The notes beneath the pieces were generated by a model. It was given only the letters and a program-made list of their open reading frames with translations, was not told where the DNA came from and did no database searches. A program made the position numbers and the translations under genes. Of a stretch of 4,564 nt of DNA, positions 144 to 4,564 are shown one piece after another. This DNA is from a virus. Lineage: Duplodnaviria; Heunggongvirae; Uroviricota; Caudoviricetes. The stretch lies in IMG/VR virus record IMGVR_UViG_2660238078_000002. One strand, 5' to 3'. Numbering within the stretch: the first letter of the stretch is position 1; the number at the start of each line of letters is the position of its first letter.

Positions 144-1874
144 TCAGGCTACCTCAACTCTCTTTTCAATAGGGTCAAGGTTTTTCATCCCGCCAAGATC
201 TTCTGCCACCTGTTTGAGCATTGACCTTGTTGATGGCGCATCAATTTTTGCACCTGCAGGCATCGCCTTTTCAACATTGCGATAAAGCTGGTCGCTTCGT
301 TTCATCAGCGCAGACATTCTTCCATTGACCGTATCAATAAACTTGTCGCTCATACCAAGAGCATCTTTTGCACCGGAAACGCGATCAATTATCTCACCCG
401 CGCCCTGTGCTAGCTGCCTGATTGCTTCATTTTCCTGCACCTGTAGAGCAGAACCCGCACGGGACTTGATTGCTTGCTCAACTGCCTTGTATTGCTCGTT
501 CCCGGAAAAGTGTGAAGGGAGTAATGAATCAACATTAAGCCTTTCAGCAGACTCCAGAACTTCAGCCTGAGGATTGATATCTAGTTCATCAAGCGATGAA
601 GCGAGATTTGGCCTTTTTTGTGCTGCTACTGTGCGAACGACTTCCTCTGGGTTCTTCGTCGCAGGCGTCATTGGTACACCTTGTGCTACTCTTGCCTCTG
701 CGGCATGAACCGCAGGATTTGTTGCTGCAGCGGCATCACCGGAGAATGGTGATGTTTCTGTTGGCGCAGTGGTCGCTCTCTGTGCAGATGTTTTATTGCC
801 ACTAATTATATTTGATGCACCACGAACACCACGGGTAACGCCATTTATCAGGCCATGCGTAGCAATGCTAAGTCCGGCATTAATAGCGGCATTTTCGGCA
901 AAATCACCCCGTTGATTCGCCGCGTCAGCGAGAGAACCAATGACCATGTTTCCAGCTACACCTGCTCCAGGAACAAGATAACCGCCTATTGACTCTCCAG
1001 CTTGCGCGTAGGGGTCTGTCGGTCTGTCTACTGGACGATAAACATCATCCAATACTTTTGGCCCCCCAAGCCCCTGACTGATTGCATTAATCAGACTTGC
1101 GCCACCCTGCAATACGTCAAATGGTATGTTTACCAGACCACGACCAGCCTGTTCTGCAATTTGCCCTGCACTTTGACCACCAGTGAGCCAATCGCCAGCT
1201 TGTTGCATCAATGATGGTTCTTCCCGTGTTGGTGCATTATTGGCCTGATTAACTGTTTGTTGCTGAACAGGTTTCGGTGCGACAGAACTTACGGGTTGAG
1301 GTGGCTGCTGACTGGCTGCCTGCTGCTCAATCTGAGCAAATGGATTATTTGGGTCTGACTGCACACCTGATGCCGATACTTGTTCGGATGACTGTACTTC
1401 CAGTTGTGCAAACGGGTTGTTAGGGTCTTGCTGAGGATGTACCTTTGCAGAGGTGGCGCGCTGTTCGACTGTTGAGTCTGTCACCGGGTCACCAGCCCAT
1501 TGAGCAAAGCGATCATCAACGTAACCGCGGCCTTCAGGTCCTGGCGTATATTCACCACGCTTTGCCTTCATAACGTTGCCGGGACCGTCGTGATAAGCCT
1601 GAAGAGAGTCACGCCAGTTACCAAACTGCTGGTACATCTTTGCCAGATAGCGCGCGCCAGCGTCAGCCTGATATTCGGGGTTTTGCATTTGCTCATCGGT
1701 ATAACCCATATCACGCCATGTCCCAGGCATGACCTGAGTCAATCCTACAGCCCCGGCGGAGCTTACTGCGGCAGGGTTGTAAGAAGACTCCTTGGCACCC
1801 AGTGCAGTCATCAACCCTTCTGGCACACCGTAACGTGCGCCAGCCTGCTCTAACAAATCACGGTAATTAGCCAT
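144..1874 (-). CDS. Lytic transglycosylase (SLT/GH23 family 1) domain protein, 576 aa; probable virion-associated peptidoglycan-cleaving ejection protein
   Basis: N-terminal 100 aa carry the family-1 lytic transglycosylase signature: catalytic-type Glu-Ser (…[29 protein letters not shown]…, Glu codon at 1790..1788) and the AYNAGxG-like motif (AYHDGPGNV). This is followed by a Q/P/S-rich linker with a tandem peptide repeat, a Gly/Ala-rich hydrophobic segment and a charged helical C-terminus. ATG at 1874 abuts the upstream stop. Confidence 0.9.
1332..1427 (-). repeat. Two copies of an imperfect direct repeat 72 bp apart, encoding the in-frame peptide repeat DPNNPFAQ(L/I)E within the SLT protein linker
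   Basis: Plus-strand gcaaatggattatttgggtc (about 1336..1355) versus gcaaacgggttgttagggtc (about 1408..1427). These translate on the minus strand to residues 150-157 and 174-181 of the 576-aa protein. Confidence 0.6.
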
Positions 1875-3206
1875 TTACTGCCCCAAAGATGGAAGATATC
1901 CGTAGCGATTAATGAAGTCGATTGACAGCTCGGGGTGCTGCTTCAGGTAATCTATAGAAGCCTGAGGCGCTTCCACTCGCTTGATACCGTTTTGCTGAAC
2001 GTACTTACCAACCGCCTCATTACGCTTCTGGTTGAGCGTGTTCAGGATGACGCCAGCGTTGCGACGAAAGGACTCCTCGCTCTGCGAGTTCTGCAGCGAA
2101 CCAACAGCCTGGTCGAGCTTTTTGCCCTCGGCATCAGAAAGTGCGCCCATGCCTCGCATGGCCTGAACCGCTGTCAGGTATGCTTGTGATTTAAAGGTAT
2201 CAAGTCGTGCCTGAGTGTCTGCAGCCTGTGAGCCTGGAACGTTGGGGATTACTCCACGTAAGCCTGTAATGCTCTTAAGTGAAGGAGAACTAACGATATC
2301 GTTCAGAGTGAACATGCTGGTTGTGAGGGTGTTGATGCCGTCTTTGTAGCCATCATTTAGCGCTTGCTGCTTCTGCTGCAACTGCTGGTTGTTGGCTGCT
2401 ATGCGGCTCTGTATTTCCTGGCGCTTCAGGTCGTTAGTTTCTGCTGATAGCATCCGGTCAAGGCGCTTATTTTCGTTGTTAATGCGGTTTGTTTCTGCGT
2501 CCAGATTAATGCGCTGCTGACCTAAATTCGCCTGGATATCTTGTCCGCGCATTGTGATTGCCTGATTCCGAGCGGCGGTTTGCGAATCCAGATCCTGACC
2601 GCGCATGGTAACCTGGCGACCCTGCATTTTATCCTGTAGGTCAAAGTATTTTTCGGGCCCGAGACTGTTCATCCCCAGGTGATCGACAAATTCGCCGAAC
2701 TGCCGCGGGTTCTGTTGGTACATCTGAGCGACGTCATGAGGATTAACGCCAACACGAGCTAACTCACCGGCGTTGTTTTGCAGCCATGATTGCATTGCTT
2801 CTGGAGACGATGACGCAAGGCGTGCGCCAGCCGCTAAGGTGCCGATAGAATTACGCTGCTCTTCATCAATGAATCCCATGCCTTTACGAACGGATTCAAT
2901 CTGGTCTGGATATTGAGTAGCCAACTGACGCAAAGCACCGCGATCACCAGACGCATAAGCATTAGCGTACGCCTGCTGAAATTCTTTCTGCCGCTGAGCC
3001 TGCTTTTCCTGCTGAAAAACACCCGCAATACCTGAAAGACCTTGCAAAGCAGTCAGCCCAACATTGTTAGCGCCTGAACGCTCAATATCATTGTTCTGCC
3101 TGATAAGCTGAAGCGTATTGCCGATGTCATTTACGCTCGGAGCGTTTGAGTTGACGCCGCCGATACCAGCCAACAATCCGCCGTTTGTTCCTTGCCAAGT
3201 AGCCAT
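1875..3206 (-). CDS. Phage internal virion/ejection-type protein, 443 aa, Q/N/R-rich with probable coiled-coil centre
   Basis: ATG at 3206..3204, preceded by a purine-rich AAGGGGGAA 2 nt upstream, an unusually short spacer. Long ORF to TAA at 1877..1875, which abuts the next ATG (TAAATG). Central region is rich in Q/N/R/E/L with internal repeats (…TMRGQDLDSQ… / …TMRGQDIQAN…; RINLDAETNRINNENKRLDRMLSAETNDLKRQEIQ). Confidence 0.85.
   Translation of the reverse strand: MATWQGTNGGLLAGIGGVNSNAPSVNDIGNTLQLIRQNNDIERSGANNVGLTALQGLSGIAGVFQQEKQAQRQKEFQQAYANAYASGDRGALRQLATQYPDQIESVRKGMGFIDEEQRNSIGTLAAGARLASSSPEAMQSWLQNNAGELARVGVNPHDVAQMYQQNPRQFGEFVDHLGMNSLGPEKYFDLQDKMQGRQVTMRGQDLDSQTAARNQAITMRGQDIQANLGQQRINLDAETNRINNENKRLDRMLSAETNDLKRQEIQSRIAANNQQLQQKQQALNDGYKDGINTLTTSMFTLNDIVSSPSLKSITGLRGVIPNVPGSQAADTQARLDTFKSQAYLTAVQAMRGMGALSDAEGKKLDQAVGSLQNSQSEESFRRNAGVILNTLNQKRNEAVGKYVQQNGIKRVEAPQASIDYLKQHPELSIDFINRYGYLPSLGQ
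2533..2612 (-). repeat. Imperfect direct repeat 54 bp apart, encoding (V/I)TMRGQD(L/I) twice inside the 443-aa protein
   Basis: ccgcgcat occurs at 2545..2552 and 2599..2606 with similar flanks (cttgtccgcgcattgtgattgcctg versus atcctgaccgcgcatggtaacctggcg). In frame, consistent with a repeated heptad-like segment. Confidence 0.5.
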
Positions 3207-3215
3207 GATTCCCCC

Positions 3216-3981
3216 TTAAAACAACGAGCCAAGCAATCCGATACCAGCACCAATACCAGCGCCCCAAGGCGTTGATGTTCCCAAAAGGCTGGCAAGACCT
3301 GCACCGGCAATCGCACCAGACGTGCCACCGCTAATTGCAGTCTGAAGACTTGATGGTTTATTGGCATTAGCAGCGGCAAGAGCTGCGCTTTGCTGTGCAA
3401 TGCTGCTCATGTTGTTGGCGTACGTCTGCCCGGCGTTTGCCTGACCTTGCAGCGCACCAAGCCCAACGTTTGCCAGATTGTTGTAATTGCTCATCTGATT
3501 TGATAACCAAGACTGACCGAGTGTCGGCGCGATCGTAGCCAGTTGATTGCTTGTGGCTGTCGAACCAAGTCCACCCGTCGCCTCCGCAGCAGCAAGACTC
3601 TGGTANNNNNNNNNNNNNNNNNNNNNNNNNNNNNNNNNNNNNNNNNNNNNNNNNNNNNNNNNNNNNNNNNNNNNNNNNNNNNNNNNNNNNNNNNNNNNNN
3701 NNNNNNNNNNTAGAGTTGTAATACTGATTAAGTGCCTGCCCCTGACCTTCTAAACTGGAAAGGTTCTGAAGCTGGTTAACATACTGCTCCGCAAGAGGCG
3801 TGAACGGAGCAAGGTTTTTCATGATCGTCTGCCACTGCTGATTTTGCAGGTCTGCAGCATACTTCTGGGCTTCTGCTGCATACTTTGCGCTTTTATCAGA
3901 ACTGCCACCTTTCCCGCCTTTTTCAGGGCAATAAGGTTCCTCGCCGCGCAGTTTTCTGCCCAGCTTAAATGCATATAACAT
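3216..3981 (-). CDS. Phage internal/ejection-type protein with a Gly/Ala-rich glycine-zipper-like C-terminus; a single gene interrupted by an N-run (about 255 aa if the gap were exactly 105 nt)
   Basis: ATG at 3981..3979 with GGGAGA 5 nt upstream. N-terminal part MLYAFKLGRKLRGEEPYCPEKGGKGGSSDKSAKYAAEAQKYAADLQNQQWQTIMKNLAPFTPLAEQYVNQLQNLSSLEGQGQALNQYYNS runs into the gap at 3711. Below the gap a different frame is open from 3605 to TAA at 3218..3216 (YQSLAAAEATGGLGSTATSNQLATIAPTLGQSWLSNQMSNYNNLANVGLGALQG...GAGIGAGIGLLGSLF*). The track continuation of the upstream frame below the gap (PESCCCGGDGWTWFDSHK...) is not protein-like. The track's 92-aa ORF (3216..3494) is therefore the C-terminal part of this gene. 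Confidence 0.7.
3606..3710. other. Assembly gap or masked segment (105 N) inside a coding region
   Basis: A run of 105 N directly in the sequence. Protein-like frames on either side differ in phase, so the N-run length is a placeholder and not the true length. Confidence 0.95.
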
Positions 3982-3983
3982 GG

Positions 3984-4439
3984 CTATCTCCCGTGATTCA
4001 GGAAGTCGATTAGTTCTTCGCGTGTGGCGCTGTAAAAAGTCACGTCATCCACGCCTTTGAAGTATTTCTTGATGGTTCCTACACGCTTAAGGCCAATCAT
4101 TGCGCAGTACATCTGACCGTGTCGGAATTTGCGTGCAGCGAACGATGTTACGCACTGAACGGTGGTGTTAGTCAGAATGTATCGCCAGAACGCCAGCCCA
4201 ATTTCCTTGCTGAAGCCGCGAATCTCTGGCAGGTACATGGCGTGGCAATCTAATGTCAGCGGCTGAATCTCCTGATAGTAAACAATGCCGCCAAACTGAC
4301 CGTGCACGTTCACCTCAAAGTAACGGCATTCAGGTTTGTAGTCGTATCCATCACCGTTGTTGCTCCCGGCGATAATGTCAGGGTGATTTCCGACTGCTTC
4401 TATCAGGTCGATGTTTCGCGTTGGTTTGAATGTAATCAT
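3984..4439 (-). CDS. Hypothetical phage virion-module protein, 151 aa (first gene of the putative ejection/internal-protein cassette)
   Basis: The ORF track gives 3984..4442 starting at GTG. I prefer the ATG at 4439..4437, which has GGAG (4446..4443) 5 nt upstream and overlaps the upstream stop. The frame is open to TAG at 3986..3984. Translation MITFKPTRNIDLIEAVGNHPDIIAG... is protein-like; no motif I can name with certainty. Confidence 0.8.
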   Translation of the reverse strand: MITFKPTRNIDLIEAVGNHPDIIAGSNNGDGYDYKPECRYFEVNVHGQFGGIVYYQEIQPLTLDCHAMYLPEIRGFSKEIGLAFWRYILTNTTVQCVTSFAARKFRHGQMYCAMIGLKRVGTIKKYFKGVDDVTFYSATREELIDFLNHGR

Positions 4440-4564
4440 CACTGCTCCGCGATTATCTTGATGGTTGTGGCAGTAAACGCCGCACCATTCGACTGAATGG
4501 TTAACGTACTGCCATTTGTGGCAAGAAAGCCGTCTTTATCCACGCTGAAGAACGTAGCTAACAG
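4439..4564 (-). CDS. 3' end of an upstream gene (5' end lies beyond the right edge of the window); probable phage structural protein
   Basis: The only minus-strand frame open from 4564 down to a TGA at 4441..4439. Hand translation gives ...LLATFFSVDKDGFLATNGSTLTIQSNGAAFTATTIKIIAEQ*. The stop shares one base with the ATG of the next gene (TGATG), typical of coupled late-operon genes. Too short for the ORF track; function not assignable from 41 residues. Confidence 0.5.
   Translation of the reverse strand: MLATFFSVDKDGFLATNGSTLTIQSNGAAFTATTIKIIAEQ

Follow-up and report, generated by a model that had tools for sequence, protein, structure and literature searches.

A conserved glycine-rich tail as a candidate membrane-packing module in a P22 gp7-type ejection protein

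The best-described counterparts of the protein considered here, a gp7-type ejection protein encoded on a 4,564-nucleotide stretch of Caudoviricetes DNA (IMG/VR virus record IMGVR_UViG_2660238078_000002; hereafter the window), are gp7 of phage P22 and gp11 of phage Sf6. P22 gp7 is carried at about 12 copies per virion, a number that matches the portal, and it influences the incorporation of the ejection proteins gp20 and gp16 (PMC4992974). The host protease OpdA removes its propeptide, and the mature form, gp7*, begins Lys-Gly-Gly-Lys-Gly (PMC8402733). The protein is ejected and is needed for K+ efflux and DNA entry, its own release depends on gp16 (PMC10883804), and it presumably binds the conserved tail hub gp10 and forms the virion-proximal part of the conduit (PMC10883804, PMC8402733). 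In P22, gp7 leaves the virion ahead of the DNA. Casjens and co-workers have argued that the low diversity of gp7 reflects binding to this highly conserved hub (PMC10883804). The abstract of a 2026 in situ cryo-electron microscopy (cryo-EM) study has gp10 templating the sequential assembly of gp7*, gp20, and gp16, with a channel of ~50 nm (PMC13622523), and a review lists gp7 and Sf6 gp11 as "gp14-like (OM)", that is, outer-membrane proteins with predicted transmembrane helices (PMC8954989). Here we compare the copy of gp7 in the window with these systems and focus on its last 39 residues, for which the best explanation is a C-terminal hydrophobic module of two short glycine-zipper segments (residues 194-210 and 216-230) joined by a Ser-Thr-Pro-Trp turn.

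A first-pass annotation of the window, made from its letters alone, had marked the last 39 residues of a gap-split protein, at 3219-3335 on the minus strand, as a glycine-zipper-like tail, and translation of this interval gives exactly the sequence it quoted, ISGGTSGAIAGAGLASLLGTSTPWGAGIGAGIGLLGSLF. The same annotation called the protein first-ejected, which is a reasonable reading of the sequential-assembly model as that abstract presents it (PMC13622523) but must be set against the dependence of gp7 release on gp16 (PMC10883804). Pfam and PHROG matches, synteny, and a sequence nearly identical to Sf6 gp11 identify the protein as a gp7-type ejection protein, laid out as follows.

3216-3981, minus strand: gene for the gp7-type ejection ("DNA transfer") protein, orthologue of Sf6 gp11 and P22 gp7, 230 amino acids after gap filling
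3922-3981, minus strand: charged propeptide, the N-terminal 20 residues, MLYAFKLGRKLRGEEPYCPE, read from the sequence; the P22 counterpart is cleaved by OpdA
3712-3759, minus strand: helical core, residues 75-90, a helical hairpin together with residues 102-145
3606-3710, no strand: assembly gap of 105 N within the gp7 gene, hiding residues 91-101 (QQYKDLAGQAR)
3474-3605, minus strand: C-terminal part of the helical core, residues 102-145, conserved and confidently predicted
3279-3329, minus strand: tail segment 1, G194-G210, with the ladder G194-x3-G198-x3-G202; moderately hydrophobic and more variable than segment 2
3264-3278, minus strand: turn T211-S212-T213-P214-W215, which links the hydrophobic segments and holds the conserved motif Ser-Thr-Pro-Trp
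3219-3263, minus strand: tail segment 2, G216-F230, GAGIGAGIGLLGSLF, with the ladder G216-x3-G220-x3-G224(-x2-G227) and a conserved C-terminal Leu-Phe

The tail ends at a TAA stop codon (3216-3218), and its frame is open upstream until the N run; a second open frame runs from an ATG at 3981 to the far edge of the N run and is offset from the first by one base. The two frames match complementary parts of the Pfam family P22_gp7 (PF25688; cut-off 28 bits), the N-terminal half at profile positions 1-90 (E = 1e-52, 179.5 bits) and the C-terminal half at positions 102-230 (E = 3e-66, 224.2 bits), so that the "gap-containing protein" of the first-pass annotation is the product of a single gene. The tail alone scores 45-63 bits against PF25688, at profile positions 183/192-230. 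The database representative P0003, which stands for 1595 sequences and is 99% identical to the gp7 here, links it to phrog_598, "DNA ejection" (E = 1e-99), and two more representatives (P0002 and P0047) are 100% identical across the overlap. At the DNA level, a 1001-nt query (3100-4100) is 97-98% identical to phages Dewey, Sf101, IME10, and Sf6, and the gene occupies the position of Sf6 gene 11. Because this query covers only 928 nt in Sf6, Sf101, and Dewey, the 105 N stand for 32 nt; with 32 nt in their place the frame is restored, and the reference translations supply the 11 hidden codons.

Two side observations concern the gene and its database entries. A Shigella flexneri variant of 249 amino acids (P0001) carries a 19-residue tandem duplication, in which GQGQALNQYYNSQQYKDLA occurs twice, exactly at the gap site; a 57-nt duplication may therefore be hidden in the gap or be its cause, with a real length of 32 or 89 nt. 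Four database entries (P0002, P0061, P0090, and P0121) join gp7 to unrelated N-terminal parts, with lengths that include 363, 403, and 481 amino acids and, in one, a replication-protein domain; these are probably gene-calling or assembly artefacts and not true fusions.

Compared with P22 gp7 and Sf6 gp11, the copy here shows no substantive difference. It shares their family model including the tail (profile 192-230), their gene order, their propeptide, and the KGGKG mature N-terminus, and it is set apart by G210, G227, the assembly gap, and a third ejection gene disrupted by an insertion sequence (IS). Its cleavage-site sequence, PE/KGGKGG, agrees with the P22 mature N-terminus, and from this identity OpdA would be expected to remove the propeptide in this phage as well.

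The tail is as rich in Gly, Ala, Leu, Ile, and Ser as had been claimed, with 12 Gly, 6 Ala, 6 Leu, 5 Ser, 4 Ile, 3 Thr, and one each of Pro, Trp, and Phe; it contains none of D, E, K, R, H, N, or Q. Measured against the other 191 residues of the protein, the chance of at least 12 glycines in 39 positions (31% of the tail) is ~1e-4, and that of a 39-residue stretch with none of D/E/K/R/H/N/Q, given the rest of the same protein, is ~1e-7. The pattern (G/A/S)xxxGxxxG is present twice, at G194-G198-G202 and G216-G220-G224; Kim et al. are said to have described the transmembrane glycine zipper in 2005 as this pattern or GxxxGxxx(G/S/T). Absence of charge is not specific to the tail, since the last 121 residues carry a single charged residue, K184. 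The earlier statement that the tail has no charged residues holds for this copy but is not a rule of the family, in which Glu210 occurs in 27 of 109 close homologues and Lys207 in 7.

These 109 distinct full-length sequences, 64-100% identical and drawn from 1043 database matches, carry the principal evidence on the tail. The first-pass annotation had suggested looking for it in close homologues, and there it is kept. In segment 1, the glycines are retained in 100 (G194), 108 (G198), and 107 (G202) sequences; in segment 2, G216 is retained in 107, G220 in all 109, G224 in 107, G227 in 106, and F230 in 102; in the turn between them, the counts are 89 for S212, 100 for T213, 94 for P214, and 95 for W215. 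Two ladders of glycines at i, i+4, and i+8 are thus near-invariant, which places the tail under selection. Mean column entropy is 0.47 for residues 216-230, against 0.40 for the core (residues 101-150, the lowest value), 1.10 for segment 1 (192-210), and 1.1-1.5 for the N-terminal regions, making segment 2 the second most conserved stretch of the protein. Prophage homologues sampled from Escherichia, Salmonella, Klebsiella, Serratia, Providencia, Morganella, Shimwellia, and Symbiopectobacterium hardly differ in segment 2.

Variation within the tail is also position-specific. Positions 195, 203, 218, and 221 toggle between Gly and Ala. Position 210 is Gly in 65 sequences, Glu in 27, and Ser in 11, with Glu210 always paired with Leu211, as in the Sf6 reference (LLETSTPW); position 207 is Ser, Gly, Asn, or Lys, and position 227 is Asp in 1 of the 109. 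Relative to the copy here, Sf6 gp11 has Glu for Gly at 210 (codon 3279-3281) and Ser for Gly at 227 (3228-3230), and Sf101 has Thr for Ala at 201. Polar or charged substitutions are concentrated at 207-211, beside the Pro-Trp turn, a distribution that fits a predicted hairpin whose turn sits at a membrane interface. A minority class of variants lacks STPW and has GIGTGIG or a deletion there. This pattern bears on the idea that the tail is a flexible, low-complexity spacer that makes no specific contact and, for example, eases threading through the portal and tail channel. A Gly/Ser/Ala-rich composition and the failure of AlphaFold2 to predict a stable structure are what such a spacer would give, but a spacer would drift in sequence and length, whereas here position-specific conservation is near the maximum for the protein and Gly/Ala compensation (below) is exact; we regard this explanation as very improbable.

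We favor, by a modest balance of probability, the view that the tail is the membrane-inserting, self-packing end of a virion-proximal channel ring, in which residues 192-230 would be lipid-embedded, packed against one another, and helical. After adsorption, about 12 mature gp7* copies would exit the capsid via the portal and tail channel, and the central helical hairpin would dock onto or into the tail hub (gp10 in P22, gp8 in Sf6) to give the ring. The two-segment tails would extend from the ring toward the cell and insert into the outer membrane as hairpins, most likely α-helical, with the polar STPW turn at one interface. Packing laterally through their glycine faces, the tails would then form a collar or pore embedded in the membrane, giving passage to gp20, gp16, and finally DNA.

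Positions 218 and 221, which lie at i and i+3, offer modest evidence that the tail is helical and closely packed. Among the 109 homologues, the pair is (G,A) in 73, (A,G) in 30, (A,A) in 1, and (G,G) in none, so that one Gly and one Ala are present in 103. A neighbor-joining tree built from residues 21-190 needs at least 14 switches of this state, and both versions occur on the same segment-1 background, pointing to repeated change, or to recombination, inside the tail; recombination could explain part of the 14 switches. In the window, the codon for residue 218 lies at 3255-3257 and those for residues 219-221 at 3246-3254. One Gly and one Ala at this spacing is what tight contact along one face of a helix would call for. 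The compensation favors a helix over a strand, because on a β-strand residues 218 and 221 face opposite sides.

This last point matters for a different membrane structure, in which the tail is a β-hairpin in the outer membrane and ~6-12 copies form a small β-barrel pore, as in β-pore-forming toxins. Residues 216-225 do alternate between glycine and hydrophobic positions (G-A-G-I-G-A-G-I-G-L) as a strand with lipid-facing and lumen-facing sides would, and a tight, Pro-containing turn and a high glycine content would suit a hairpin. The conserved glycines, on the other hand, are spaced i, i+4, and i+8 without strict alternation (218 and 221 toggle), segment 1 has no alternation, and the membrane parts of the comparable proteins Ar-KM gp41 and DEV gp73 are helical, as resolved or predicted (10.64898/2026.05.18.726046, PMC11445570). 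The C-terminus also departs from the outer-membrane-protein β-signal. This signal of the β-barrel assembly machinery (BAM) ends in an aromatic residue and has a hydrophobic residue at every second position; the protein here does end in Phe, but in GIGLLGSLF positions -3, -7, and -9 are occupied by S, G, and G. We consider a β-hairpin improbable.

Several observations weigh against a helical, membrane-inserted tail. GxxxG enrichment in the single sequence does not go beyond composition: the tail has 5 GxxxG against 3.1 expected from composition-preserving shuffles (P = 0.14) and 2 GxxxGxxxG against 0.75 expected (P = 0.18). The "repeated GxxxG" of the first-pass annotation thus rests on the glycine ladders conserved across the homologues, and given these shuffle tests the spacing is meaningful only through that conservation. 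Hydropathy is weak as well: the best 19-residue Kyte-Doolittle mean is 1.28, below the customary 1.6, and the best 15-residue mean is 1.57, for segment 2; summing Hessa apparent free energies gives +4.4 kcal/mol for a 19-residue stretch and +2.3 for the best 15. Neither hydrophobic stretch is long (~9-12 residues in segment 1, 15 in segment 2), and the family tolerates Lys207 and Glu210. Transmembrane-helix prediction had been proposed as a check; these simple scales call no transmembrane helix in the tail. AlphaFold2, run once on 58 diverse sequences and once on 120 mostly clade sequences, gave a predicted local distance difference test (pLDDT) score of 85-95 in the first run only for residues ~75-145, a helical hairpin; with both alignments, residues 150-230 scored ~30-40, leaving no usable model of the tail. 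Foldseek against the PDB returned nothing (best match E = 3.5), and querying PDB sequences with either the protein itself or the family profile gave chance matches only, such as ricin B and FepB (E > 0.2); the PDB copy used contains no gp7 structure. The literature examined, which for the 2026 in situ P22 study comprises its abstract, holds no experiment on the tail itself.

Weak hydropathy and low pLDDT are nevertheless compatible with membrane insertion, because the protein arrives from outside, not through Sec, and would act as an oligomer. The membrane-channel interpretation of the first-pass annotation accordingly divides: the ejection-protein identity, the placement at the outer-membrane end in the literature, and conservation of the tail speak for it, while the hydropathy tests do not call the helix that it supposes. 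That the tail forms a membrane helix is something we infer from its sequence.

A different reading makes the tail a protein-protein packing motif outside the bilayer, its glycine ladders allowing it to pack tightly against other tails, the hub, or the gp20 N-terminus as a water-exposed channel wall or a gasket, with gp20 or another element crossing the outer membrane. Conservation as high as that of segment 2 is seen more often at a specific contact between proteins than in a generic lipid anchor, the 218/221 compensation points to a precise contact, and sub-threshold hydropathy and the ascription of low gp7 diversity to gp10 binding (PMC10883804) agree with this. In Ar-KM, moreover, gp15-like N-termini line the lumen of the gp14-like tube (10.64898/2026.05.18.726046). 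Yet 39 residues without D/E/K/R/H/N/Q would be unusual for a soluble interface, and relatives shift the hydrophobic Gly/Ala end to the other terminus (below), which is hard to fit to one fixed docking site. gp7 is also reported, in a paper citing Iglesias 2023, to partition into lipid nanodiscs (PMC11445570), and Sf6 gp7 functions with P22 gp20 and gp16 (PMC10883804), which means that the tail can do without a cognate gp20 or gp16. On this evidence, we judge packing outside the bilayer to be unlikely, if well worth weighing.

An effect of the tail before ejection, as a procapsid incorporation signal or a means of retention in the portal barrel, would accord with a gp7 copy number equal to that of the portal and with the effect of gp7 on gp20 and gp16 incorporation (PMC4992974). 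A P22 gp7 fragment comprising residues 21-154, ending before codon 155, the site of the amber allele 7-amH1375, is however still packaged into virions (PMC8402733). The tail is therefore not needed for packaging, this result largely refutes a role as an incorporation signal, and we give the idea almost no credence. Whether the fragment keeps partial function is, according to its authors, not known (PMC8402733); because amber alleles are by definition conditional-lethal, loss of the C-terminal 75 residues is probably lethal.

The favored membrane-inserting tail can be set beside the distant members of the family. An exhaustive HMMER search yielded 201 representatives. We sampled 58 members of the family, 17 of them P22-like and 41 distant but full-length (22-39% identity). 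All 58 match Pfam P22_gp7, and the distant members align across the core, residues ~45-170, which is the part conserved in all 58. They include proteins of Shewanella phage ZP9 (identical to database representative P0195) and a Vibrio phage, as well as gp45 of Salmonella phage Lumpael; tblastn of the phage collection located distant loci at 7001-7639, 5899-6561, and 4899-5528, with many more among metagenomic proteins. Gene order in the distant loci is hub, needle, gp14-like, gp7-like, gp20-like, and a large third protein, and because this order is shared the distant relatives are true orthologues.

Scoring a hydrophobic segment as a best 15-residue Kyte-Doolittle mean of at least 1.4, we found one in the last 40 residues of 17/17 P22-like but 3/41 distant proteins and, conversely, in the first 30 residues of 0/17 P22-like but 28/41 distant proteins. 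The distant orthologues mostly lack both the long C-terminal tail and a P22-type cleaved propeptide; their N-terminus is hydrophobic and rich in Gly and Ala (MGGAISGIGGAVSSVLGGIG in Lumpael, for instance), with an AxGxxxG motif in the consensus of the set, and their C-terminal end is short, often G-x-F. As far as sequence can indicate, the gp7 family seems to need a Gly/Ala-rich hydrophobic end whose terminus is variable. We propose tentatively that a hydrophobic module has been relocated within one family, being N-terminal in most lineages (Shewanella, Vibrio, and Murrayvirus-type) and a C-terminal, doubled glycine-zipper hairpin in P22/Sf6. An equally doubtful corollary is that the P22/Sf6 lineage converted its N-terminus into the charged propeptide that a protease removes.

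A second comparison is with the T7 gp14-like proteins (T7 gp14, Ar-KM gp41, and DEV gp73). These resemble gp7 in size (~180-240 amino acids), in being encoded by the first gene of a three-gene ejection operon, and in having a helical hairpin core, hydrophobic ends that are predicted or shown to enter membranes, and a place near the hub or nozzle (PMC8954989, PMC11445570, 10.64898/2026.05.18.726046). In Ar-KM, a phiKMV-like phage, the nozzle after ejection contains a hexameric tube built of gp41 helical hairpins, and both gp41 termini, predicted to span the membrane and unresolved in the structure, point toward the outer membrane (10.64898/2026.05.18.726046). By analogy, this layout matches that of gp7 well, with its confident central hairpin and hydrophobic ends. 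DEV gp73 and T7 gp14 form pores in lipid bilayers (PMC11445570), and most of the distant gp7 relatives have a Gly/Ala-rich N-terminus similar to that of T7 gp14. Homology is another matter: hhalign of a 58-sequence gp7 profile against T7 gp14 gave a probability of 0.2% (E = 0.28), so that homology was rejected, and the Pfam family T7_gp14 (PF24072) was matched by 1 of the 58 relatives (E = 9e-4) and not by the gp7 here. The two types also differ in that P22-like gp7 has both hydrophobic segments at the C-terminus, its N-terminus being the cleaved charged propeptide, and in that P22-like ejection proteins form no ordered core stack in the virion (PMC8954989). What stands is the functional and positional analogy of gp7 to T7 gp14.

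Glycine zippers themselves offer a third comparison. In transmembrane glycine zippers, found in channel-forming helices such as those of VacA and MscL and in glycine-zipper pore-forming toxins, the shared features are two GxxxGxxxG motifs, near-invariant glycines, uncharged surroundings rich in Ala, Ile, and Leu, and an expected oligomer around a pore; the gp7 tail is less hydrophobic, its segments are short, and it would insert from outside after ejection and not through Sec. The Pfam domains Gly-zipper_YMGG, Gly-zipper_Omp, and Gly-zipper_OmpA belong to outer-membrane lipoproteins with SlyB/Pcp-type "2TM" hairpins. They share with gp7 two Gly-rich hydrophobic segments, a short turn, and an outer-membrane target, but gp7 has no lipobox and no signal peptide, and its protein context is unrelated. 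Membership was rejected for Gly-zipper_YMGG (PF13441; 15-16.5 bits, E = 0.007-0.02, against a gathering threshold of 28.9), and, with E ~5 at best, for Gly-zipper_Omp (PF13488; 7.7 bits against 25) and Gly-zipper_OmpA (PF13436; 7.4 bits against 27). The likeness is compositional, with no evidence of membership; the sub-threshold match of the tail to Gly-zipper_YMGG at E = 0.007 was counted as weak support for a membrane-inserting tail.

The gp7 gene lies in an ejection operon whose other parts in the window are listed here with the elements that interrupt it.

3984-4442, minus strand: gp14-type (DUF2824) head-assembly or virion-stability protein, upstream of gp7; PF11039, E = 1e-52; matches the position of Sf6 gene 10
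3207-3215, minus strand: nine-base spacer GGGGGAATC from the gp7 stop to the gp20 start, read from the sequence, with a Shine-Dalgarno-like GGGGG inside
1875-3206, minus strand: gp20-type ejection protein, Sf6 gp12 orthologue and next channel component; PF16928 Inj_translocase, E = 1e-67; phrog_2534 over its full length
144-1874, minus strand: third ejection protein, 576 amino acids, with an N-terminal SLT lytic-transglycosylase domain (Pfam SLT, E = 9e-25); cut by IS DNA
73-156: end of an IS600-family IS3-like element, 100% identity
1-72: end of a second multi-copy IS3-family element, with the start of orfA at position 18 on the minus strand (MTKNTR...)

The order gp14, gp7, gp20, third ejection gene, all on the minus strand, is that of Sf6 genes 10-11-12-13 and of Sf101. 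The short spacer with its Shine-Dalgarno-like GGGGG couples gp7 and gp20 tightly. A scan of 3100-3450 found no consensus for a promoter or for a minus-strand terminator, and the tail and its surroundings likewise lack tandem repeats, promoters, and same-strand terminators; open reading frames (ORFs) in other frames that overlap 3219-3335 have no support, whereas the gp7 frame has that of Pfam.

The operon is mosaic, in that gp7 and gp20 are Sf6/Sf101-like and the third protein is of the Sf101 type, not the Sf6 gp13 / P22 gp16 type. The Sf101-type protein has an SLT domain and is 911 amino acids long when intact; from this domain, the third protein is predicted to bring peptidoglycan-hydrolase activity, as in T7 gp16. 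Here, the match to the 911-residue Sf101 transglycosylase gene ends at window position 157, next to the IS600-family end. The element in positions 1-72 is one that we take to resemble IS629/IS1203. With its third ejection gene cut by an IS, the prophage is probably defective, and the copy resides in a degraded Shigella-type prophage. Shigella flexneri SFBU1023 (CP182556) and "E. coli" ECMA0423 (CP178302) both carry the exact IS junction, but none of 5426 complete E. coli genomes searched does. As a further side observation, phrog_21143, labeled "lytic tail fiber protein", has 576 positions and matches the IS-truncated ORF over 1-576/576; given the equal lengths, this PHROG family seems to have been built on the truncated form.

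Much of what this locus presents is already known: the gp7 gene is near-identical to a known phage gene, the tail lies within the Pfam model, and the general role of the protein, including the general idea that proteins of this class enter the outer membrane, has been published. In the literature searched, we found no paper linking "glycine zipper" with phage ejection proteins or noting an N-to-C relocation, and the text index of the 2026 in situ P22 preprint does not contain the word "glycine". The motif-level description of the tail and the N-to-C relocation may thus be small new observations.

These observations bear on how short-tailed phages open the outer membrane, a process that is still being resolved structurally, and on gp7 as the smallest, most conserved, and least characterized of the three P22-type ejection proteins. 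The tail is a sequence-defined, probable membrane or packing module whose elements (two invariant glycine ladders, the STPW turn, the compensating Gly/Ala pair, and the conserved C-terminal Leu-Phe) are targets for mutagenesis with which the P22 sequential-assembly model can be tested. If the hydrophobic module was indeed relocated in this way, ~6-12 hairpins would form a purely α-helical, DNA-conducting outer-membrane pore whose packing rules, the two invariant glycine ladders together with the 218/221 Gly/Ala compensation, would be readable from sequence.

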